In this document: in pieces, positions 560-15,473 of the stretch
How the letters are laid out: each line of letters opens with the position of its first letter
Numbering within the stretch: the stretch's first letter is position 1
Assembly: GCA_963422365.1 (NCBI GenBank)
Contig: OY729426.1
Location: 1,952,001-2,016,000, forward strand
DNA length: 64,000 nucleotides
Direction of reading: 5' to 3'
DNA from: Nitrospirales bacterium
GTDB lineage: Bacteria > Nitrospirota > Nitrospiria > Nitrospirales > UBA8639
Notes under the pieces: generated by a model
What the model was told of the DNA's origin: nothing
The model's database searches: none
What the model saw: only the letters and a program-made list of their open reading frames with translations
Translations under genes and position numbers: made by a program

Positions 560-1492
560 TCTGTCACCGATTCATCTCTGGCAGCAAACAAAACCTGCAC
601 GAGGAAGAACAGCAACAGCCGCTACAGTAAAAGGAAGTCACCTTTCTTGATTCGATCCTTAACGCTTATCGGGCGAAGAAGGTTGAGCACTTCGCCGTCT
701 TCCATGACAAAAAAGCCGGGCGGCTGTGGGCCGGTCAAATTACCCGTCACCCGCCTGTTTGTGGAAGAGATTATTCTGGAGTGAAAGCATCACTTCGAGT
801 TTGAGATGGGTTGTTTCCCAACATGTTGGACAAGGCGCGTTCTACAAGCATTGACATTGCGCCCCAACACCCCTGCCTGGGTCTTCGACAAGCGGGTGGT
901 GGAGAAGAACCAAGTGGTGCTCCACGACGTGGCATTCATTGAAGTCAAACCGCACGTGAAAGCAGGCAAGAAGAACTAGACCGTGGCAGCGGAACTTACG
1001 GATTTCTCGGTTTTTTCTTCGCAGGACTCAATCGCCAATGCTGAGATAGCCCTCTCGACGAACAAGAAAGCCGACAGCAGGACCGTGGTGGAAAAGGGCT
1101 GGATTGTGAAGGTGTGCAAGGACAAAAATGGCGTCATGAAACGCGAGACGCTGACCCTGCACTGGACGCACTGGATCGGCTACTGGAGCGTGGATTTCGA
1201 CTTCGAGAGCACACGCTAGATCACCCGCGTCCAAAGAGAACTTTCGCGAGATGCGCAAACAATCCTCGAAGGCATGGGCGATGAACAGCAAAATCTGCCA
1301 GTATGGGAAGAGCAGTATACCGGCGACTCCATCTTCGAGAACGAATGGCAGAGTTTCCGCATGAAAAAAGACCGCTCGCTGGAACTCAAAAGCGTAGCCC
1401 ACGAATGCCCGCCAAGCCGCCACAAACTGGCGGTGAAGGTGTTGGACATCTTCGGCAACAACATCATGACGATCATGGAGGTGAGAGTATGA
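560..1492 (+). pseudogene. degraded C-terminal part of a Type III R-M DNA methyltransferase (Mod)
   Basis: Frameshifted fragments with stops, recognisable as this Mod family's C-terminus: ILNAYRA, LPVTRLFVEEIILE, FEFEMG, VFDKR..EKNQVV.HDVAFIEVKP, ELTDFSVF, WIGYWSVDFDFES, FENEWQSFR..KDRSLEL, AVKVLDIFGN. The N-terminal catalytic part is missing. The start is approximate. Confidence 0.8.
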
Positions 1493-4107
1493 AGAATTGG
1501 GATTTCCACGGCGCAAAGTGGTGGAAATTTGACTTTCATACACATACACCTGCATCAGCCGATTTTACAAAGCCGGAAGTTACCTGCGAAGACTGGCTGC
1601 GTGCATATATGGAGAGAGGCATTGATTGTGTAGCGGTCACTGACCATAACTGTGGTAAATGGATTGATGAACTGAAACACACGCTCCGCGATGTGGAAGA
1701 ACAAAATCCTGAATGGTATAGACCTTTCTCTCTGTTTCCAGGCGTCGAAATTTCTGTCAGTGGTGGCGTACATTTGCTCGCCATATTTGATCCAGGAAAA
1801 AAGACAGCGGATATCGATTCATTATTGGGTGCAGTAGCGTATGGTGGAAACAAGGGAAAGAGTGATGCCGAGACCAAAAAGAGCTTGAGTGATGTGATTG
1901 ACGAAATTGTTCAAGCAGACGGTATTGCTATTCCCGCCCATGTGGATAGGAAGAAAGGGCTCTTCAGCTTAAAGGGGATATCACTTGAACAAGTATTGGA
2001 CAATCCTAATATCTACGCGATGGAGTTGTGCAATAAGGATTTTCCCAAGCCTGAGTTGTATAGCTCTAACAAGACTGACTGGACAGAAGTCTGTGGCTCG
2101 GACTTTCATGGCGACCCATCAGGTGTTTTCACCTGGGTAAAGATGGAGGATCCCTCTATTGAGGGGCTTCGCCTTGCCTTGATTGATGGGGATTCGTCGG
2201 TTAACCGGGATATGGACGTAGAGCCAAACCAGTACGCAGAATATGTGATCGAAGAAATCATTGTTGAGAAAGCTAAATATATTGGACGCCCCGAGGCTCT
2301 AACCTGCCAATTCAGCCCTTTTCTGAACACGATCATCGGCGGACGTGGCAGCGGCAAATCCACTTTGCTGGAATTTATGCGTTTAGCCTTGAGACGAACA
2401 CAAGATCTGCCGACTAGACTCAAAGATGACTATCAAGGCTATTTCAGAACAGACGAGGCGGGTGGACTCCTGACTCGAGGTAGCAGTCTGCGCCTTGTCT
2501 ATCGTAAAGGAGATACTCGCTATTGTCTCAACTGGAACGCGACTTCTGCCCCCCCCTCATTAGAAGAGTGGGATGAAGCAGCAGCAGATTGGCAGGAGGT
2601 AGAGGGCGAAATCGAATCGCTGTTTCCGGTCAGTATCTATAGCCAAAAGCAGATTTTTGAATTGGCAAGCGAACCACAAGGGTTGCTGGGGATCATCGAC
2701 AGGGCACCCGAGGTCGAGTTTGACGAATATCACGGGGCATTTCAGGATTGCAGCAACAGTTGCAAGCAAATCATTCAGCAGAAGACTCAACTAACTCAGA
2801 AAATCGACGAAGAAACTAAATTAAAGGGGCAATTGAATGACCTGACACGACAGATTGAACAGGTGGAAAAATCCGGACACAAAGATGCGTTGCAGAAATA
2901 TCGATTACGTCAACAGCAGTTAACTGAGATTAAGTATGTTGAGCAACACTGGGAAGGGTTTTGGGATGGCATGCGCGAGGTGCTCGCCGAGGCAGATGTG
3001 GCAGCAGTTGATAAGAATTTTTTTACCCAACACCCAGAGATATTGACTTCGTTGCAAGGCCAACAACATCAATGGCGAGAGCAGATCAACCAAATACGCA
3101 AGATTGTCGAAAAGCAGGGAGAAGACCTGAATCAATGGCAGACCGAAAAGCAGAAGCAGACTTGGATGAAAGTACTCAATCGGGATTTGCAACAGTACGA
3201 GCAGTTACGCGCTCAGTTGGAGCAACAAGAAATTGATCCGCAAGCCTATCCCAATTTATTGCAAAAATATTCGTGGGTAGAGAAAGAACTCCAACAAATA
3301 GCAGACTATAAGGCGCAAAGAGATAGATTAACAAAACAATGCCGGGCGAAATGTTCAGATGCCAAACGCCACAGGGAGGAATTGACGGAACGAAGAAGAT
3401 GTTTCCTCAGACGTGTTTTGGAGGGCAATGAATCAGTCAAGATAACCGTTCAACCTTTTGCCGAGCCCTGGGCGGATATAGAGAAAACAATCAGGGAAAT
3501 ATTGCAGGTAGGGGATCGTTTTGACAGAGACATTGAGGCACTGAAACAGGTCATTGACGAAAAAGGATGGGAGCCAGCAAAGCAAAGAATATTCGATATT
3601 CGAGGAGGTAAGGACCCTGCCAAAGACTCACGCTTTCAAAGCCATTTACAAGGCTTGCCCAACGAATCGTTACTAGATCTGCGGCTGTGGTTTCCTGAAG
3701 ATGCCTTGCAAATCACCTACGGGGAAAATGGCAAAAGGATCCATGAAGGCTCTCCGGGGCAAAAATCTGCGGCGTTGTTGGCATTTATCCTTGCCCATGG
3801 TGATGAACCTCTCCTGCTTGACCAGCCAGAGGATGATTTGGACAACGACCTTATTTATAGTTTGATCGTGCAGACCATGAGAGCCACTAAAACCAAACGG
3901 CAAATTATTGTTGTGACCCACAATGCCAATATCGTGGTCAATGGTCATTCTGAAATGGTGCACTGTTTGAATGTGGCGAACGGACAATCGCACGTGACAT
4001 CTAAAAGCCTCCAATCCGAAGCCATCAGGAAGCGCATTTGCGATACGATGGAAGGCGGTAGCAAAGCCTTTGAGCAACGCTACAAGCGCATCCATCTAGA
4101 GAGTTAG
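1489..4107 (+). CDS. PHP-domain + ABC/SMC-like ATPase (TrlF family, Ppl-like anti-phage protein), 872 aa
   Basis: PHP motifs DFHTHT, AVTDHN, PGVEI, IPAH, GSDFH; Walker A GGRGSGKST; long coiled coil; signature SPGQ; Walker B LLLDQPEDDLD; H-loop VTHN. ATG at 1489 overlaps the mod stop (ATGA). Confidence 0.88.
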   Translation: MKNWDFHGAKWWKFDFHTHTPASADFTKPEVTCEDWLRAYMERGIDCVAVTDHNCGKWIDELKHTLRDVEEQNPEWYRPFSLFPGVEISVSGGVHLLAIFDPGKKTADIDSLLGAVAYGGNKGKSDAETKKSLSDVIDEIVQADGIAIPAHVDRKKGLFSLKGISLEQVLDNPNIYAMELCNKDFPKPELYSSNKTDWTEVCGSDFHGDPSGVFTWVKMEDPSIEGLRLALIDGDSSVNRDMDVEPNQYAEYVIEEIIVEKAKYIGRPEALTCQFSPFLNTIIGGRGSGKSTLLEFMRLALRRTQDLPTRLKDDYQGYFRTDEAGGLLTRGSSLRLVYRKGDTRYCLNWNATSAPPSLEEWDEAAADWQEVEGEIESLFPVSIYSQKQIFELASEPQGLLGIIDRAPEVEFDEYHGAFQDCSNSCKQIIQQKTQLTQKIDEETKLKGQLNDLTRQIEQVEKSGHKDALQKYRLRQQQLTEIKYVEQHWEGFWDGMREVLAEADVAAVDKNFFTQHPEILTSLQGQQHQWREQINQIRKIVEKQGEDLNQWQTEKQKQTWMKVLNRDLQQYEQLRAQLEQQEIDPQAYPNLLQKYSWVEKELQQIADYKAQRDRLTKQCRAKCSDAKRHREELTERRRCFLRRVLEGNESVKITVQPFAEPWADIEKTIREILQVGDRFDRDIEALKQVIDEKGWEPAKQRIFDIRGGKDPAKDSRFQSHLQGLPNESLLDLRLWFPEDALQITYGENGKRIHEGSPGQKSAALLAFILAHGDEPLLLDQPEDDLDNDLIYSLIVQTMRATKTKRQIIVVTHNANIVVNGHSEMVHCLNVANGQSHVTSKSLQSEAIRKRICDTMEGGSKAFEQRYKRIHLES

Positions 4108-4109
4108 CC

Positions 4110-5351
4110 ATGCTTAATGTCGCACAGATTATAGAAAAGATACGCATCGGTGAAAATTCAGGAATTGAATTCAAGGAAGCCCGCATCAGCAATGATAAAG
4201 TAATGGTGCCTCATCGTGATAATTTGTCGGATGAGTTGGCAGCGTTTGCCAATCACTCCGGTGGTATCATTATTTTTGGCGTTGCGGATAAGACCCGACA
4301 GATTGTCGGCGTTGATCCCTCAAACGTCAGTACGCTGGTCAGCTACATTAGCGAAATTTGCTGCGATTCCGTTGCTCCCCCCATCGTGTATTTTTATGTG
4401 GATAGCGTTCAGGTGACGGATGAAGCAGGTAAAGAAAAGCATCTGGTTTATGTGCAAGTTGAAAGAAGTCTTTGGCTCCATAAAAGCAAAAACGGCTATT
4501 TTTACCGGCATGGGAATAGCAAAAGAGAAATGAGCTCTGAGCATCTGCTGCGGGTAGGGCAAAGCCGCTCACAAGTACGTATTGTTCTCTTTGATGAGCA
4601 GGCCGTCCCCAATACCAGCCAAGACACTCTGCAAAAAGATCTGTACATGCGGTTTGTCGCTGACGACAAGCCGTCATCACTGTGCAAACGCCGACTGCTG
4701 GTGTCACACAACGATAATTTTCATGCAACCGTTGCCGGGGTTTTGATGTGTAGCCCCACGCCCGATGAGCATCTCTACAACAGTTACATTCAAGCAGTTT
4801 CTTACAGCGGTCAAACCAAGGATGCTAATTATCAGATTGATGCGAAGGATTATCGCGGTCCTTTGGATAAACAAATCATTGGGGCCTATCATTTTGTCAA
4901 CCAACACAACCGGATTTCGGCAAAAAAAGAGATGGGCAGAGAAGAAAAACCACAGTACAGCATGAAAGCCGTGTTCGAAGCATTCGTGAATGCGGTTGTA
5001 CACAGGGATTATTCCATACACGGCTCCAAAATCCGCTTATTCATGTTTACTGATCGGCTTGAGCTATATTCGCCTGGAGCACTTGCCAACACGTTAACGA
5101 TTGACAACTTGATTGATAACCAGTTTACGCGCAATGAATTACTGTCTCGTCTGCTGTCTGATTCGTCAATAGATGATGAAATAGGTCATGCCGTGAACCG
5201 AAGATATTTTTTGGAACGTCGTGGCGAAGGTGTCGGTATTATCCTCAATGAGAGTGAGAAACTTAGTGGCAAGCGACCAGTGTATGAACTACTTGGCGGA
5301 GAGCTGAAATTGACCATTCATGCCGCAAAATCATTGCAGAAATCCGATTAG
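4110..5351 (+). CDS. Schlafen/AlbA_2-domain protein with C-terminal HATPase_c_4-like domain
   Basis: N-terminal ENSGIEFKE and LAAFANHSGG.IIFGV (AlbA_2); C-terminal EAFVNAVVHRDYS, DRLELYSPG, RNELL, ERRGEGV. Confidence 0.85.
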   Translation: MLNVAQIIEKIRIGENSGIEFKEARISNDKVMVPHRDNLSDELAAFANHSGGIIIFGVADKTRQIVGVDPSNVSTLVSYISEICCDSVAPPIVYFYVDSVQVTDEAGKEKHLVYVQVERSLWLHKSKNGYFYRHGNSKREMSSEHLLRVGQSRSQVRIVLFDEQAVPNTSQDTLQKDLYMRFVADDKPSSLCKRRLLVSHNDNFHATVAGVLMCSPTPDEHLYNSYIQAVSYSGQTKDANYQIDAKDYRGPLDKQIIGAYHFVNQHNRISAKKEMGREEKPQYSMKAVFEAFVNAVVHRDYSIHGSKIRLFMFTDRLELYSPGALANTLTIDNLIDNQFTRNELLSRLLSDSSIDDEIGHAVNRRYFLERRGEGVGIILNESEKLSGKRPVYELLGGELKLTIHAAKSLQKSD

Positions 5352-9751: not shown

Positions 9752-10786
9752 ATGAATACTCAACTTCCCATTCGTACAATGGATGAATTTCGTGATGCTG
9801 TCTCTACCTTTCGCTTGTCACGTGTTTTTGCTACGGCATTGGATCTCGACCTCTTTACCTGCATGGGACATAGATTTTGGACCCCCAAAGCCTTGGCCAA
9901 AACGTTGAAGGCCAGTGAACGGGGAATCGAGATTCTCCTTCGCAACTTGGAAACCGCCGGCTTACTCAAACAACGGGGACCTTCCTATGGCGTAGAGAGA
10001 GTCGGTCGCACTTTTTTGAATCGAAACAGTCCGGCTTATCAAGGGGCCTATTTGGATCTCCTCCATCGCCAGTGGGAAAATTGGGCACAGCTCACTAATG
10101 CCGTTCGAACGGGCAAACCGATTGAAAATGAAGGACCGGATGAGCCGGAATATCGACGATCATTTACCTGGGCGATGCATCAGCGCTCCGTAAAGCCTGC
10201 AAAACAAGTGGCCGCCCAACTCAATCTGAACAACGCAAAAATGCTGTTGGACGTTGGAGGAGGGCCCGGCACGTATGCAGTAGAGTTTTTGAAGAAAAAT
10301 TCTACGTTGCAGGCAGGGATCTGGGATCGTCACCCAGCTCTTGAAGTCGCCCAAGAAATCGCCAAACCGTTACGACATGGCAAGCGACTGTCCTATTACC
10401 CAGGCGATCTTTTTGAAAGTCCGGTGCCTGGAAAATTTGATGTGATGTGGGTATCGAACGTACTGCACATTTTTTCGCCGACTGAAAATAAAACCCTACT
10501 CCGAAAACTCAAACGGGCGCTCAACCCCGGAGGACGCATTCTGATTCAAGATACCTTCCTTATGAACAAACCAGGATTCGACATCGCAGAAACCAACCTG
10601 TTTGCGATCACGATGCTCTTATTCACCCCAACGGGGAACACCTATAGCGCCCAAGACGTACAACAGTGGCTCAAGACCTGCGGACTCAAAAAAACCAGGT
10701 GCCTTCAGTTGAAAAAAGGAACCGGTGATTGGGACGGGGTCATTATTGAAGGAAAGGTGGAGAAGCCGTACATCCCCCATAAATAA
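9752..10786 (+). CDS. SAM-dependent O-methyltransferase (Methyltransf_2 with dimerisation domain)
   Basis: N-terminal ALDLDLF/winged-helix region, LLDVGGGPG, GDLF, SNVLH, LNPGGRILIQD. Confidence 0.92.
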   Translation: MNTQLPIRTMDEFRDAVSTFRLSRVFATALDLDLFTCMGHRFWTPKALAKTLKASERGIEILLRNLETAGLLKQRGPSYGVERVGRTFLNRNSPAYQGAYLDLLHRQWENWAQLTNAVRTGKPIENEGPDEPEYRRSFTWAMHQRSVKPAKQVAAQLNLNNAKMLLDVGGGPGTYAVEFLKKNSTLQAGIWDRHPALEVAQEIAKPLRHGKRLSYYPGDLFESPVPGKFDVMWVSNVLHIFSPTENKTLLRKLKRALNPGGRILIQDTFLMNKPGFDIAETNLFAITMLLFTPTGNTYSAQDVQQWLKTCGLKKTRCLQLKKGTGDWDGVIIEGKVEKPYIPHK

Positions 10787-10915
10787 TGTCGCAGCCGCAT
10801 CCCATGCGACCTAACCGCGTATCTGACTAACGACCTACCATCTATCGATGGTACTCAGGACAGGTAAGATCTCGCCGCGAAAAAATTCATTCGGATCCCT
10901 ACGACGCAGGCCTTC

Positions 10916-13411
10916 ATGACCTTTATACTGAACATTCTGTACCACGTTGTTATCCAGCCTCTGGAAATCAGTTTCGGATTTCTATTCCAGGCCTTTACCG
11001 AACAGACGACCGTCGGCATGGCCATTGTGCTGATTAGCCTGGTGGTCAATGTGCTGCTGTTGCCGGTGCAGTGGCACAGTGATACTGCGCTGGCGCGATT
11101 GCGGCAAAAACAGAAAGCCATCGAGCCGACAATCCATGACATCAAACGGGCGTATCGGGGATCAAAACGATTTTTCATGTTGCGTACGCTGTATCGGCAG
11201 GCCGATTATCACCCGGCCATGGAGCTGAAAACCACCCTCGGACTTATGGTTCAAATTCCATTTTTCATCGCCGCCTGGCGATTTCTAAGCCAGGAGCCGG
11301 CGCTGGTACAGACAGCGTTCGGGCCGCTGTCGGACCTCAGCCGTGCGGATGGCCTGGGACCGCTGGGGCTCAATCTCCTGCCGTTGCTGATGACCCTCCT
11401 GAGCCTCATCTCGGCCATGCTGTATCACCAACGCCACGGGCGCGGTGCGTGGCTTCAGACCGGCGGGCTGGCGGTGGTGTTTCTGATTCTGCTATATCCG
11501 TCAGCCTCCGGCGTGGTGGTGTACTGGACGGTCAACAATCTGTTTTCGCTGCTGAAACATATCGTTCCTCTGCGCCGTCCTGTCGCCATGACGGATGACG
11601 ACCCTGCCAGCCTCCTGTTTCTATCCTCATTGAGTGCGCGTCGAGTCCACGAAGTGTATGCGCTGTCGGTCTGCATTCTGCTGGCGACCATCTTTTATAT
11701 TGCGCCGCTCAATCTGTTCAATTCGGACCCGCTGGAGTTCCGTCATTTTTTCTCCGATATACTGGCGTTTCATTATTCGATCTTCGTGCGAATCGCCATC
11801 GTGTTGACTGTTGTGTACCTGTGCGCATCGGCGGGAATCAAACGGGTGCTTGCCGGCGTGGTGTTTTATGTCGCCTTGGTCAGTGCGCTCTATGGCTACG
11901 TGTTCAAGGGCGATTATGGGCCAATGACGGCCTTTACTTTCAACAATAACAATCTGTCCGAATTGTGGCCGGATATGGTCATTATGTATGACTTCGCCAT
12001 TGTGGTGGTCACGGCGGCGGGCTGCTGGTTGCTGCTGTCGCGGGCAGTCAAGCTGGTGCCCGATATTCTGCGCGTACTGAGCTTGAGTCTTTGTATTTAC
12101 GCGGTGTTTATCAGCGTTGAAGCCATAAAAGTGCTACCCCCCCCCCCCCCCCATAAAATTGAACGGCACGATATAGCGGTATTATCCGATCAGACCACGG
12201 CGGCCTCAGCCGAAAAGTTTTACGCCTTTTCCAGGGATCGGCAAAACGTGGTGGTGGTGATGTTGGATATGTTTGATGGCGGCGCGATCGATGAATTGTT
12301 GCGCCGCTATCCGCATTTAAGAGCCGAACTGGACGGCTTTATCTGGTATCCCAACACCGTGACTCCAGGCACCTCCACGCTCGTATCCGAGCCAGCCATC
12401 CACGGCGGTCACCGGTTTAGCCCTGAACACTTCGTCGATTCCATCAATGCTAATCCTCAGTTGGTTGACGATTATATCGTCGGCGGCTATGAACTCATGG
12501 TGGACGTGTTTGCGGAGGCCGACTTCCGTATTGCCCTGACCGGCGTGCAATCAATTGGATGTAGCCAGATTGAAGCCCGAATTGACTCGCCCCACCTCAC
12601 CCGTTGCATCGGCATGCACGACTATGGAACCGTATTTGCCGACTATTGGGCCACGGCTCACCCAGAGGAATTTTCGACCTTTTTCAATGGGGATCTGCGT
12701 CTGTCTAGACGGAAATCGATAGGGAGAAAATTACTGGGGGTGATAGGTCTGTTTCGTGTTGCACCCTATCGGCTCAGGCAACATATTTACCAGCGTCAGT
12801 GGTTGGGTCAAGTCAAGGGTACGGGGAAATGGAGACAGTTTTCTGCCCTGGCTTCTCTGCCCAGCGTCAGTTTTATCGATGACTCGCCTTTGCGTACCCT
12901 ACACTACCTGCAGACTCAGCTGACACATCACCCGTTCAATGTCAGCGAAGGGTGTCAGCTCTTGGTGCATACCGGCTATCATGAACAGGATAGGGCAACT
13001 TGGGCGCAATACTGTACGCTCAAACTCTTGGGCAACTGGATAACCTGGATGAAAGCGCACCACGTCTATGATAATACCCGGATTATTTTCGTCTCGGATC
13101 ATAATCTTTTCGAGGTGAAGAACGATCTGCCTGTGCTTATGAGCGTGCATGGGTTGATGATGATTAAGGATTTTGCATCTCATGGCCCGGTGAGGGAAGA
13201 TCGTCGGCTGCTATCCGCGGCAGATACCCTGGCCATTGCCTACTCCGGCTTTGGTGACGATGCCCGCCTGATTCAGGATCCGACCCGACACTCCATTGCC
13301 AACCGAAAGTTGCGGGTCAGTAAGTACAGTGGCAACCAAAAACGCATTATCGCCCAGTACGAAGTCACCGGATCTATTTTCGAGCCAGAGAACTGGAAGC
13401 AGATCAAATAG
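10916..13411 (+). CDS. fusion of a YidC/Oxa1-like membrane domain, extra TM helices and an alkaline-phosphatase-superfamily (LtaS/sulfatase-like) domain
   Basis: YidC-like N-terminus: GMAIVLISLVVNVLLLP, QIPFFIA, DLSRAD, NLLPLLMT, SGVVVYWTVNNLFSL. C-terminus: NVVVVMLD, candidate Thr nucleophile in GTSTLVS, THHPF, VYDNTRIIFVSDH. Confidence 0.8.
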   Translation: MTFILNILYHVVIQPLEISFGFLFQAFTEQTTVGMAIVLISLVVNVLLLPVQWHSDTALARLRQKQKAIEPTIHDIKRAYRGSKRFFMLRTLYRQADYHPAMELKTTLGLMVQIPFFIAAWRFLSQEPALVQTAFGPLSDLSRADGLGPLGLNLLPLLMTLLSLISAMLYHQRHGRGAWLQTGGLAVVFLILLYPSASGVVVYWTVNNLFSLLKHIVPLRRPVAMTDDDPASLLFLSSLSARRVHEVYALSVCILLATIFYIAPLNLFNSDPLEFRHFFSDILAFHYSIFVRIAIVLTVVYLCASAGIKRVLAGVVFYVALVSALYGYVFKGDYGPMTAFTFNNNNLSELWPDMVIMYDFAIVVVTAAGCWLLLSRAVKLVPDILRVLSLSLCIYAVFISVEAIKVLPPPPPHKIERHDIAVLSDQTTAASAEKFYAFSRDRQNVVVVMLDMFDGGAIDELLRRYPHLRAELDGFIWYPNTVTPGTSTLVSEPAIHGGHRFSPEHFVDSINANPQLVDDYIVGGYELMVDVFAEADFRIALTGVQSIGCSQIEARIDSPHLTRCIGMHDYGTVFADYWATAHPEEFSTFFNGDLRLSRRKSIGRKLLGVIGLFRVAPYRLRQHIYQRQWLGQVKGTGKWRQFSALASLPSVSFIDDSPLRTLHYLQTQLTHHPFNVSEGCQLLVHTGYHEQDRATWAQYCTLKLLGNWITWMKAHHVYDNTRIIFVSDHNLFEVKNDLPVLMSVHGLMMIKDFASHGPVREDRRLLSAADTLAIAYSGFGDDARLIQDPTRHSIANRKLRVSKYSGNQKRIIAQYEVTGSIFEPENWKQIK
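12137..12152 (+). repeat. poly-C homopolymer (16 C) inside the CDS
   Basis: gtgcta-C16-ataaaatt, encoding L-PPPPP-H. Confidence 0.95.
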
Positions 13412-13420
13412 CAAACCGCC

Positions 13421-14749
13421 ATGGCGCACATACCTTTGTCTATAAAGATATTGCCGACTGTTTTGATTATCCTGGTGCTGACCAGCACGCCGGCTTACGC
13501 CTATCTCGATCCGGGAACCGGCAGTCTGCTGTTCGCCGCGATCTCCGGGCTAGTGGCCAGCGCGTATTTCGCCTTGAAGGGGTTGATGTATCGGCTATCT
13601 TCCTTGATTGGTCTTGTGAACAAGACCTCAGCGAGGCACCGCCAGAAATATGGCATTGTGTTGTACTCTGAAGGCGGGCAATACTCTTCCACCTTTGTGC
13701 CGCTGATACAGGCGCTGGCGGAGCGCAACGTGCCCTGCGTTTATCTGAGTTCCGACCCGGACGACCCCGGACTGCGTGCCGACTATCCGCTGCTTGAAAC
13801 CGAGTTCATCGGCAGGGGAAACGCTGCCTACCGGCGGTTGAACTGGCTGGAAGCGGACCTGTGCGTGTTCACCACGCCTGGGCTGGACGTCTTGCAGATC
13901 AGGCGCTCCCCTAGGGTGAAACATTATTGCCATATCGTCCATGCGCCGACGGATATTTGGCTGTACGAGCTGTTTTCGTTCGACTATTTCGATACCTTGA
14001 TGTGCAGCGGTGAGCACCAGATCCGCAGCCTGCGAGCGCTTGAGCAAACGCGCGGCACGCCCCCTAAGACCTTGCTGAAAACCGGCTGTGTGTATTTTGA
14101 CGGCCTGCTCCGGCGGGCCCGTGCCGATGGCGCGGCGAACCCCTCACCCTCCGGTTCCTCGACACGTACCCTGTTGATTGCCCCCACTTGGGGCCAAAAC
14201 AGTCTGCTGCTGCGCTGCGGCAACGCCCTGTTGCATACCCTGCTGGACACCGGACATCGAGTGATCGTACGGCCGCATCCGCAAAGTTTCGTCTCCGACA
14301 AAACCTTGATCAATGACTTCGAAAAAACCTGGCAGGGTAGCGCCAATGTGCAGTGGGATACCAGCAACGACGCCTACTCCAGCATGGCCGCTGCCGCTGT
14401 GCTCATTTCCGATATTTCAGGCATTATTTTTGATTACGCCTTCGTCTTCGAAAAGCCGGTGATCACCATCGCCGCCCATCCCGACCTGTGCGGCAAGGAA
14501 GCCATCGACCTGCCTGAGGGCGAAACCATCTGGGAACTCGACGCCATCGGCAAACTGAGCACCGTCGTCCCAGTAGCCCAGATCGATCAGCTGCCGACCA
14601 TCATCCAACAACTCGCATTACCTTCGGCCCCGCGATCCCAGGCCCGCCGTCTATGTGCCGAATCACTCTTCCATTTCGGTGAAGCCGGCGCGGTCGCAGC
14701 CGAACAGTTGATCGCAATCCAGCAGGGGCTTGAGATCGATCGAAGGTAG
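13421..14749 (+). CDS. CDP-glycerol glycerophosphotransferase (TagF/TagB-like) family protein
   Basis: N-terminal AYAYLDPGTGS plus TM; LLIAPTWG, IVRPHPQ, LISDISGIIFDYAF..KPVI motifs. Confidence 0.85.
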   Translation: MAHIPLSIKILPTVLIILVLTSTPAYAYLDPGTGSLLFAAISGLVASAYFALKGLMYRLSSLIGLVNKTSARHRQKYGIVLYSEGGQYSSTFVPLIQALAERNVPCVYLSSDPDDPGLRADYPLLETEFIGRGNAAYRRLNWLEADLCVFTTPGLDVLQIRRSPRVKHYCHIVHAPTDIWLYELFSFDYFDTLMCSGEHQIRSLRALEQTRGTPPKTLLKTGCVYFDGLLRRARADGAANPSPSGSSTRTLLIAPTWGQNSLLLRCGNALLHTLLDTGHRVIVRPHPQSFVSDKTLINDFEKTWQGSANVQWDTSNDAYSSMAAAAVLISDISGIIFDYAFVFEKPVITIAAHPDLCGKEAIDLPEGETIWELDAIGKLSTVVPVAQIDQLPTIIQQLALPSAPRSQARRLCAESLFHFGEAGAVAAEQLIAIQQGLEIDRR

Positions 14750-14922
14750 GTGGATGGAAAATACCTCCAGTGTCTTCAATTGAACAAGGAACCGGTAATT
14801 GGGAGGCATGATTGAAGCCATAGAGAAGGAAAAGGAGGCGTAACAATACAGGAAAACACAACAAATTGCCTATCAGGCATATCCCCCTCGGGCTCAAGCT
14901 TCAGGCTATTCTCCCTCTCGTC

Positions 14923-15303
14923 TTACGAAGCAGAGAAGAGCCCATGTCCTCCCAACAGGATGAGGAAAAAATTCAAGACTGCACTTGTGACAAGAATACA
15001 GAAAAAGTGGATTGCCTCGTCAGGCCCAGGGCTGACCTGAGCCACCGTTGCAACATCCAATGCCAACCCGATTGTTCCATACATAACCCCAACCATAGAA
15101 GTCCATCGTTTTCCAGTCAGACAGACTCCACCGACTAGTAATGGAAGTCCGAATCCAAACCCGTACCAGATAGATTGATGGAGATTTAAGGTCAATTCTT
15201 TCTCAGGTTGAAGGGCATCGAAGGCCATGGCACTGACGAAAAGTCCAAAACAGAGCGTTGCCATCAGGCGATACGTCCAATTTCCTGCACCGGTTGGGGT
15301 CAT
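14923..15303 (-). CDS. hypothetical membrane protein (about 4 TM)
   Basis: Four hydrophobic segments; start chosen at ATG 15303. Confidence 0.7.
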   Translation of the reverse strand: MTPTGAGNWTYRLMATLCFGLFVSAMAFDALQPEKELTLNLHQSIWYGFGFGLPLLVGGVCLTGKRWTSMVGVMYGTIGLALDVATVAQVSPGPDEAIHFFCILVTSAVLNFFLILLGGHGLFSAS

Positions 15304-15443
15304 GAGAAGTCCATGGCTAAAGAGAGTATGTTGTAAAGGTCGTTTGTTTCCGTGGAGTTCCTCACACGAGTGGGCTCCGCTCTGATTCGAAACCATTTTG
15401 CCGTCATAGGATGTAAAGTCAAGGCCTAAGCCCCACTCGTCGA

Positions 15444-15473
15444 TTGACACTCCAATTCAGCCAAGCCTAGAAT
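15444..15473 (+). promoter_or_regulatory. sigma70-type promoter for the EF-G paralogue
   Basis: TTGACA-18 nt-TAGAAT, followed by a GGAGG RBS and ATG at 15500. Confidence 0.6.

Follow-up and report, generated by a model that had tools for sequence, protein, structure and literature searches.

The LtaS/LtaP, EptA, MCR-1, EptC, BcsG and PbgA/YejM proteins share a five-helix membrane anchor and an outer catalytic fold, and the known LtaS/EptA-type enzymes draw their head groups from bulk phospholipids. Gtr and Arn relays carry sugars on undecaprenyl phosphate by means of a GT2 protein, GtrA or ArnEF, and a GT-C protein; these three-component relays load a substrate inside, flip it and transfer it outside. 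In DltX-DltB-DltD and PatA-PatB, a small membrane peptide with a C-terminal Tyr and an FxYxxF motif helps acyl groups through the funnel of an MBOAT protein and on to the serine of an SGNH protein (passages of PMC12148441). The Pnt pathway (Ppm, Ppd, AEPT and PntC) supplies cytidine monophosphate-activated 2-aminoethylphosphonate (CMP-AEP), and no transferase or transport step after CMP-AEP is named in the passages of PMC6697681 that deal with it; the same paper describes most bacterial phosphonate synthesis as thought to tailor surfaces, and the steps beyond CMP-AEP as poorly known. Here we analyze a gene pair at positions 10916 to 14749 of a 64,000-nucleotide stretch, hereafter the window (contig OY729426.1, positions 1,952,001 to 2,016,000 of the forward strand, assembly GCA_963422365.1), of a Nitrospirales bacterium. 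The two genes encode a YidC-like domain, an LtaS/EptA-like domain, a TagF-like domain and a small membrane peptide with a YxDPG motif, four parts that, judging from sequence comparison, likely act as one machine. In our view the machine probably carries a CMP-activated phospho-head group, which in this host is likely AEP, out of the cytoplasm and delivers it to an acceptor at the outer face of the inner membrane. The first-pass annotation of the window had described a YidC-LtaS fusion beside a TagF-like gene as a teichoic-acid-like or envelope-decorating system; this stood in part, since the fusion, its pairing and a general role in envelope decoration are supported, but it had missed the invariant YxDPG peptide and the donor pathway, which is encoded elsewhere in the host genome.

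The main evidence for a single machine is that the same four parts are found in three layouts, which suggests that they likely act together. Layout 1, that of the window, has the YidC-like and LtaS-like parts in one gene and the peptide and TagF-like parts in the other. Layout 2 (locus L145) has an LtaS-like gene that lacks the YidC part and matches the fusion alignment at E 7.5e-27, together with a YidC-TagF fusion and a gene encoding a 70-residue YIDP peptide, so that the peptide has its own gene where YidC is fused ahead of TagF. Layout 3 (loci L146 and L147) shows a stand-alone 230-residue YidC-like gene followed by a single peptide-TagF-LtaS chain of about 1,010 residues. All four parts are kept in every layout and the peptide is always N-terminal. 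TagF-like and LtaS-like domains stand in one chain in the Sphaerochaeta-type family. The search for fusion homologues gave 95 proteins (E<=0.001), and a pattern scan of GTDB gave at least 560 relatives among at least 622 pattern matches (an estimated 4,200 stretches or so), from which 78 loci were kept. The module was found in Bacillota, Spirochaetota, Pseudomonadota and Thermodesulfobacteriota, as well as in the lineage of the window. The same TagF-like subfamily is present in 55 of the 78 fusion loci, within 400 nucleotides in 50 of them; for the 23 loci without it, 18 genomes were searched (five stood outside the search) and all 18 carry it elsewhere. In the reverse direction, 66 of 74 TagF-anchored metagenome loci contain a YidC-like or LtaS-like part, and seven of the other eight have the gene at the end of the stretch. 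The linkage proposed from the window thus holds across the family. Pairwise distances of the fusion parts correlate with those of TagF (0.74-0.81, 61 pairs); common ancestry accounts for this, and the correlation offers no way to choose among the explanations weighed below. Database names of the members are only YidC/Oxa1 or CDP-glycerol glycerophosphotransferase.

Tandem arrays of the fusion were seen in several loci (L029, L080, L025, L032 and others), with six copies in L029 and more than one long copy in 16 of the 78 loci; since several fusion copies often accompany one peptide-TagF gene, this suggests that several acceptors are served by one loading enzyme. In the Helicobacter cinaedi cluster P0095, the fusion is either whole (894 residues) or split into pieces of 494 and 424, or 389 residues. 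Genes encoding a CotH kinase, a VTC-domain protein, a DUF4956 protein and a PMT_2 membrane glycosyltransferase are recurrent neighbors of the module in a small number of Lachnospiraceae loci (L026, L030 and L020), and genes that we take to be glycosyltransferase and rml-like genes adjoin a minority of the loci.

The features of the gene pair are the following:

10916..13411, plus strand: gene 1, an 831-residue fusion of a YidC-like domain, five further transmembrane helices and an LtaS/EptA-like domain (open reading frame, Pfam, AlphaFold model)
10916..11575, plus strand: YidC-like domain, residues 1-220, with five transmembrane helices and a cytoplasmic helical hairpin (Pfam, alignment, fold match)
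11636..12133, plus strand: second membrane region, residues 241-406, with five transmembrane helices (model, alignment, fold match)
12137..12152, plus strand: linker run of 16 C (C16), which keeps the frame in this copy; either a sequencing error or a candidate on/off switch (contig comparison)
12221..13408, plus strand: alkaline-phosphatase-superfamily domain, residues 436-831, predicted outside (Pfam, model, alignment)
13421..14749, plus strand: gene 2, 442 residues, with a signal peptide, the YxDPG membrane peptide and a TagF-like transferase (open reading frame, Pfam, model)
13421..13501, plus strand: signal peptide, predicted cleavable, residues 1-27, ending in A-Y-A (sequence, same pattern in relatives)
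13502..13585, plus strand: YLDPGTG motif and weakly hydrophobic transmembrane helix, residues 28-55, the fourth part (alignment)
13646..14746, plus strand: cytoplasmic GT-B domain, most like TagF (model, alignment)

Gene 1 and gene 2 are separated by 9 nucleotides, and promoter and terminator scans gave chance-level results. In gene 1, Pfam detected PF02096 at residues 34-217 (E 2.7e-20, 73 bits against a cut-off of 35) and PF00884 at residues 443-729 (E 1.9e-5, 24.5 bits, slightly below the cut-off of 25); in gene 2, PF04464 was detected above its cut-off (E 2.4e-8). The structural model and conservation counts of gene 1 are based on an alignment of 72 of the 95 homologues, and those of gene 2 on 56 of the 60 matches found. 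The AlphaFold models have a mean predicted local distance difference test score (pLDDT) of 86 for gene 1 and a score of 90 for gene 2.

Residues 440-831 of the gene 1 model match LtaS, LtaP, PbgA, MCR-1, EptA and sulfatases at Z 18-22. The best Foldseek match over the membrane and outer parts together is PbgA, and in structural alignment PbgA and MCR-1 align from residue 237 onward, which covers membrane parts too; over the known proteins with anchor and outer fold, Z ranges from 18 to 21.5. The alkaline-phosphatase-superfamily domain proposed from its motif residues is therefore borne out by its fold and by their conservation, with Asp451 and His671 present in 72 of 72 homologues, Asp728 and His729 in 69 of 72, and position 488 occupied by Thr in 68 and Ser in four. 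Thr488 is the candidate nucleophile, and it and the metal ligands presumably correspond residue by residue to those of LtaS. The candidate Thr/Ser nucleophile and the Asp...His...Asp-His set are shared with LtaS/EptA-type enzymes; the module differs from them in its low identity (8-15% in structural alignment), in the added YidC-like domain and in its obligate TagF-like and peptide partners. The second membrane region shows two conserved outer-loop residues, Pro264 and Gly335. The Lys/Arg positive-inside pattern over the ten helices of the family alignment places the catalytic domain outside, and this topology is a prediction. A formylglycine sulfatase was considered and rejected, because the C/S-x-P-x-R motif is absent at the nucleophile in all 72 homologues and PF00884 scores under its cut-off.

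The C16 tract separates the coding regions of the membrane part and the catalytic domain, and the reading frame passes through it. In contigs that span the block, assembled from sequencing runs of unrecorded platform, the tract is C16 in run X1, C17 in X2, which shares its sample with X1, and C15 in both X3 and X4, while the contigs of X5 break there; runs X1-X4 may include the source of the assembly. With one C fewer the protein stops at residue 419 and with one more at residue 413, in both cases before the catalytic domain. In the relative G001, which carries the same fusion, the tract is an interrupted C8 and in frame. The length variation may represent phase variation, by which the gene would be switched on and off, or homopolymer error. 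The host genome has 17 C/G runs of at least 11 nucleotides, which could be screened for contingency genes.

The N-terminal domain (residues 1-220) aligns with Bacillus halodurans YidC2 (3wo7_A) at Z 18.1 and a root-mean-square deviation of 3.4 A over 208 residues, which together with PF02096 confirms the YidC/Oxa1-like assignment. A Foldseek search of the PDB with the whole gene 1 model showed no YidC among the matches listed, whereas a wider structural search did match YidC. The domain shares with the YidC/Oxa1/Alb3 proteins (E. coli YidC, 3wo7 and Thermotoga maritima 5y83) the fold, the core of five transmembrane helices, the cytoplasmic hairpin, Gln113 and the YW..N pattern. It differs in the lack of a large periplasmic domain and in its score for the NCBIfam model TIGR03592 (68.3 bits, under the cut-off of 84.3), and it is accessory to a housekeeping copy. 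Furthermore, the position of E. coli Arg366 is occupied by Asn45; across the 72 homologues this position is Asn in 46, Ser in 17, Thr in four, Gln in three and Gly in two, and never Arg or Lys. By alignment, the groove residues Tyr203, Trp204, Asn207 and Thr160 are invariant (72 of 72) and Gln113 is present in 66 of 72, with Tyr203-Trp204 at the positions of E. coli Tyr516-Tyr517. Lys214 occupies the site of the last-helix Gln of canonical YidC, and this site is Lys in 68 and Arg in four homologues. The YidC of layout 2 (L145) shows the canonical pattern, with Lys in the first helix and Gln in the last, and the groove would thus appear to keep one positive charge in both forms, moved from one helix to another; no literature was found on relocation of the YidC groove arginine, and PMC7618853 offered nothing of relevance. 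In E. coli, YidC R366N complements if residue 517 is aromatic, as given in a passage of PMC8920935. Since the aromatic pair is invariant here, the loss of the arginine is no proof that insertase activity is lost, and an argument from the missing arginine to a missing insertase was rejected. Lipid scrambling in vitro by E. coli YidC has been described in part of 10.1101/2023.09.01.555937, and a groove that carries a lipid-linked substrate is plausible for the fusion.

The gene 2 model has TagF as its best fold match (E 2.4e-13), in line with PF04464 and with the TagF-like gene described 9 nucleotides downstream of the fusion. The protein shares with TagF/TarL/Cps3D (PF04464) the GT-B fold, His286, which aligns with the TagF LRMH/FRGH histidine, and His174, which we take to be TagF His444; both histidines are invariant in the 56 aligned TagF-like proteins. 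It differs by its low identity (about 15%), by the N-terminal YxDPG peptide and by partner genes suited to CMP-AEP, CDP-choline or similar donors and rarely to CDP-glycerol. In a quick tree of TagF-like proteins, which names no donor lineage, the window protein groups (99%) with those of G001, G040, Neptunomonas, Sutterella, one Desulfovibrionaceae member and one Treponema copy.

The peptide consists of an N-terminal Y-[IL]-D-P-[GA]-[TS]-G motif and a membrane helix, found in 56 of the 56 aligned TagF-like proteins, in which Tyr, Asp, Pro, Gly34 and Leu37 are invariant. Among 150 distant representatives, 117 show the motif, always with Tyr and never with Phe; the other 33 have no visible motif and many look truncated. 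A leader of at least 14 residues, mostly ending in A-x-A, precedes the motif in 80 of the 117. Cleavage of the signal peptide after A-Y-A is predicted to make Tyr28 the first residue, on the outer face and three residues from a weakly hydrophobic helix (1.79), while the TagF active site is cytoplasmic. The DltX and PatA peptides (passages of PMC12148441) are alike in being small membrane peptides with an invariant terminal outer Tyr, in linking an enzyme that loads the group to a transferase outside, and in being either free-standing or fused, as in the module. They differ in that theirs is a C-terminal Tyr and ours is within an N-terminal YxDPG, and in partners, which are MBOAT and SGNH proteins there and YidC-like, TagF-like and LtaS-like proteins here; the likeness is an analogy only. 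A second, stand-alone YLDPG peptide gene (80 residues, AHA|YLDPGS) is found in the host at G000:C1:963625-966768 on the minus strand (L113:11626-14769), where G000 denotes the host genome. It is followed by a 464-residue methyltransferase, which we take to be NoeA-like, and by a gene, spread over two overlapping frames, for a membrane and sulfatase-like product, with the transfer-messenger RNA nearby; 41 homologues of this peptide were found, and no YidC paralogue was seen near it within the 17 kb listed.

Genes for an activated donor are found beside 31 of the 78 loci: LicC/PntC-like genes in 26, phosphoenolpyruvate (PEP) mutase in nine, Ppd in nine, choline kinase in eight, AEP transaminase in seven, a nucleotidyltransferase with a pyridoxal phosphate enzyme in six, and TagD-like genes outside PEP mutase loci in four. 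Gene types of the Pnt pathway (passages of PMC6697681) thus stand beside many module loci as well as in the host. In 24 other module genomes, two of which were already known from their loci for PEP mutase and two of which are host relatives, PEP mutase was found in 18, choline kinase in eight and TagD above its cut-off in one. Within one family of 101 genomes, PEP mutase is present in five of seven genomes with the module and seven of 94 without it, in a sample whose kin are not independent and whose center genome was picked for having the module. According to part of 10.1101/2021.04.07.438883, about 5% of bacterial genomes make phosphonates.

The host has an AEP/phosphonolipid gene set in two places, G000:C1:300-5983 (minus strand) and 2321328-2322959 (plus strand). 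The operon contains genes for Ppd-like subunits, an AEP-transaminase-like protein, a PntC-like protein, a CDP-alcohol phosphotransferase and a lysylphosphatidylglycerol (LPG)-synthase-type protein. PEP mutase scores above its cut-off; it is fused to a nucleotidyltransferase in 38 of 38 genus genomes and is followed by an aldo-keto reductase in the host. A 1174-residue gene at L103:5713-9237 (G000:C1 about 2317700-2321200), presumably a type ISP-like restriction-modification gene, lies directly upstream of PEP mutase and is divergent from it. Neither TagD nor choline kinase turned up in the host genome (98.6% complete), whose three PF01467 proteins are CoaD, RfaE domain II and NadD. The product of PntC is CMP-AEP (passages of PMC6697681). 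Considering the AEP gene set and the lack of TagD and choline kinase in the search, CMP-AEP would be the likeliest donor in this host, which likely makes a phosphonolipid. By the same findings a teichoic-acid polymer becomes unlikely, and the polyol-phosphate product first proposed did not hold up, with TagD in one and PEP mutase in 18 of the 24 module genomes.

In the relay that we favor, the PEP mutase, Ppd-like, AEP-transaminase-like and PntC-like enzymes, whose genes are observed, would make CMP-AEP. The TagF-like domain, by its fold and histidines, would load AEP onto a hydroxyl group of a carrier in the membrane, for which a lipid is the likeliest candidate; the carrier would cross at the hydrophilic groove of the YidC-like domain, and the YxDPG helix may tether the TagF-like enzyme to the membrane unit. 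Outside, on the predicted topology and by the chemistry of LtaS/EptA, Thr488 would receive the group and hand it to an envelope glycan, lipopolysaccharide (LPS) or glycoprotein. This is alike to the Gtr and Arn relays in order, although none of their folds is present in the module. A lipid is preferred as carrier because the membrane part resembles the lipid-using LtaS/EptA enzymes and because YidC scrambles lipids, yet the lipid version of the relay is advanced only tentatively and at somewhat less than even odds. Several points weigh against this account. The carrier, donor and acceptor are all inferred by us, and 47 of the 78 loci show no activation gene in the stretch fetched. The Ppd-like subunits and the transaminase of the host fall short of their NCBIfam cut-offs, and sulfopyruvate decarboxylase gives the beta subunit a higher score. 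The host AEP operon has its own CDP-alcohol phosphotransferase and LPG-synthase-type protein, so that a second lipid-loading route would possibly be redundant, and a lipid carrier leaves the invariant tyrosine of the peptide unexplained. The conserved groove residues are also compatible with insertase activity, and much of this population may carry a frameshift in gene 1.

The invariant tyrosine suggests another carrier. The TagF-like enzyme could load AEP on Tyr28, the YidC groove could move the N-tail across and Thr488 could take the group, a phospho-version of the DltX/PatA acyl shuttle with an insertase as channel. We regard this as rather unlikely, at about one chance in four, although the Tyr is kept in all 56 aligned and all 117 motif-bearing distant proteins, a leader mostly ending in A-x-A precedes it in 80 of the latter, and the peptide is N-terminal in all layouts and a separate gene in layout 2. 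It would also fit the one retained groove charge (Lys at the canonical site in L145, Lys214 here), the weakly hydrophobic helix, and the second host peptide, whose neighbors are a sulfatase-like gene and another type of cytoplasmic enzyme; DltX and PatA provide precedent for Tyr shuttles (passages of PMC12148441). However, the tyrosine of DltX and PatA remains outside, and Tyr28 is predicted near the helix on the outer face, opposite a cytoplasmic TagF active site. The tail would have to move back and forth repeatedly, a movement for which we know of no precedent, and single use would cost a protein of 440-1000 residues per group in the fused layouts. In addition, the characterized LtaS/EptA-type enzymes use lipid donors, and no YidC paralogue lies beside the second host peptide in the 17 kb listed. 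At similarly doubtful strength, YxDPG peptides may be a general class of phospho-group shuttle (AEP or phosphocholine) that has a YidC paralogue as channel and also serves other enzyme pairs, for instance at the second host locus with its methyltransferase. Less likely still is that no relay exists. In that case the YidC-like part would serve the module privately, inserting or chaperoning the acidic N-tail with its YxDPG motif as well as the membrane helices, while inside the TagF-like enzyme would decorate a glycan linked to lipid and outside the LtaS-like domain would separately use phosphonolipid, phosphatidylethanolamine, phosphatidylcholine or phosphatidylglycerol. The R366N complementation with an aromatic residue 517 (passage of PMC8920935) agrees with this, as the family has Asn or Ser at 366 and an invariant Tyr203-Trp204, and so do the likely phosphonolipid of the host and the conservation of the YidC part, which is the highest in the fusion (52% mean identity against 38% in the catalytic domain, 61 pairs). 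Against it, a housekeeping YidC is present, each of the three layouts retains the paralogue, be it as a stand-alone gene or joined to one or the other enzyme, and the single TagF-LtaS chain of the Sphaerochaeta-type family points to one pathway.

Two further explanations concern the product and the outer domain, and both are very improbable. A chain polymerized from CDP-polyol by the TagF-like enzyme and then exported or transferred by the fusion is the least probable of all, despite TagF being the top fold match with both His kept and TagD-like genes occurring in four of 78 loci. The PF01467 proteins of the host are accounted for, TagD is scarce in module genomes, the flanks of the cassette show no genes for priming or export, and AEP, choline and ethanolamine have no second hydroxyl for chain extension. 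Scarcely more probable is an outer domain that acts as a hydrolase (phosphodiesterase) trimming or recycling head groups, or as a PbgA-like regulator. PbgA is the top Foldseek match, sulfatases and phosphonate monoester hydrolases score level with LtaS, and the fold search cannot separate transferases from hydrolases, which weighs against our assignment of a transferase; nevertheless the domain travels with biosynthetic activation genes and a transferase and shows the sulfatase motif in none of 72 homologues.

The surroundings of the cassette in the window are the following:

9752..10786, plus strand: left flank, O-methyltransferase gene (Pfam, relatives)
14762..14850, plus strand: degenerate repeat of the 3' end of the methyltransferase gene that lies upstream; possible insertion scar (sequence comparison)
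14923..15450, minus strand: right flank, small membrane-protein gene; true start possibly further in (open reading frame, relatives)

The gene pair is an insertion and was gained horizontally, as had been proposed. The fusion is present in two of 37 genus genomes and one of 24 other genomes of the order, and the TagF-like gene in two of 38 genus genomes. In four of four relatives without the cassette the flanking genes are adjacent, with the O-methyltransferase gene directly before the right-flank gene, and in run X6 one deep contig passes straight from 10743 to 15056, without the cassette. G001 has an identical fusion architecture (79% identity) at the same site. The degenerate copy after the cassette has a core (14783-14804) that is 91% like 10713-10734 and is found in G000 only, not being seen at this site in G001. 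The upstream methyltransferase ends at TAG in five relatives and reads six codons further here (window 10763-10786). The first-pass description of the block as GC-richer than its flanks stood for third codon positions (GC3 of 0.64 in gene 1 and 0.71 in gene 2 against 0.46-0.58 in 11 neighboring genes) and less so for overall GC, where the 0.550 of the block compares with 0.534 for the genome on average and is reached by 21% of 3.8-kb genome windows. GC content was set aside as weak proof of transfer, and patchy presence and empty sites were used instead. An assembly artefact was rejected, given the G001 copy, the 95 homologues and single contigs of four runs that span the block. A canonical 576-residue YidC is encoded at G000:C1:726078, after a gene that is presumably yidD-like, and gene 1 was rejected as the housekeeping yidC. 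The host also has lpxC, consistent with the LPS-producing diderm assumed at the outset.

Elsewhere in the window, a 934-residue gene and a 413-residue gene at 1303-5351, presumably PHP-plus-ATPase-like and AlbA/ATP-dependent helicase-like, both show low GC (0.45-0.47) and form a possible defense island. Outside the window, the contig ends G000:C1:1-58333 and 2437343-2495695 repeat over 58 kb at 99.8%, so that genes there appear twice, and this is probably an untrimmed circular overlap. Very long repetitive, adhesin-like open reading frames with 8-kb repeats of about 90% identity lie at G000:C1 about 10274-47600.

Judged by titles and the opening of abstracts, no description of the module was found in the literature searched, in which most subscription papers and supplementary gene-cluster tables were not covered. 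The module is real and widespread, and within that literature it is undescribed: each part comes from a known superfamily, yet the fusion falls outside canonical YidC (by the arginine and TIGR03592) and outside the sulfatases, and the system goes without TagD. The module is a concrete and widespread candidate for the surface-tailoring steps beyond CMP-AEP. If the relay is true, a YidC paralogue would be embedded in a biosynthetic machine, and either lipid scrambling by an insertase or a new peptide shuttle would become testable. In the window the module takes the minimal form of a cassette of two genes, which could draw on the host-wide AEP supply and may be phase-variable.

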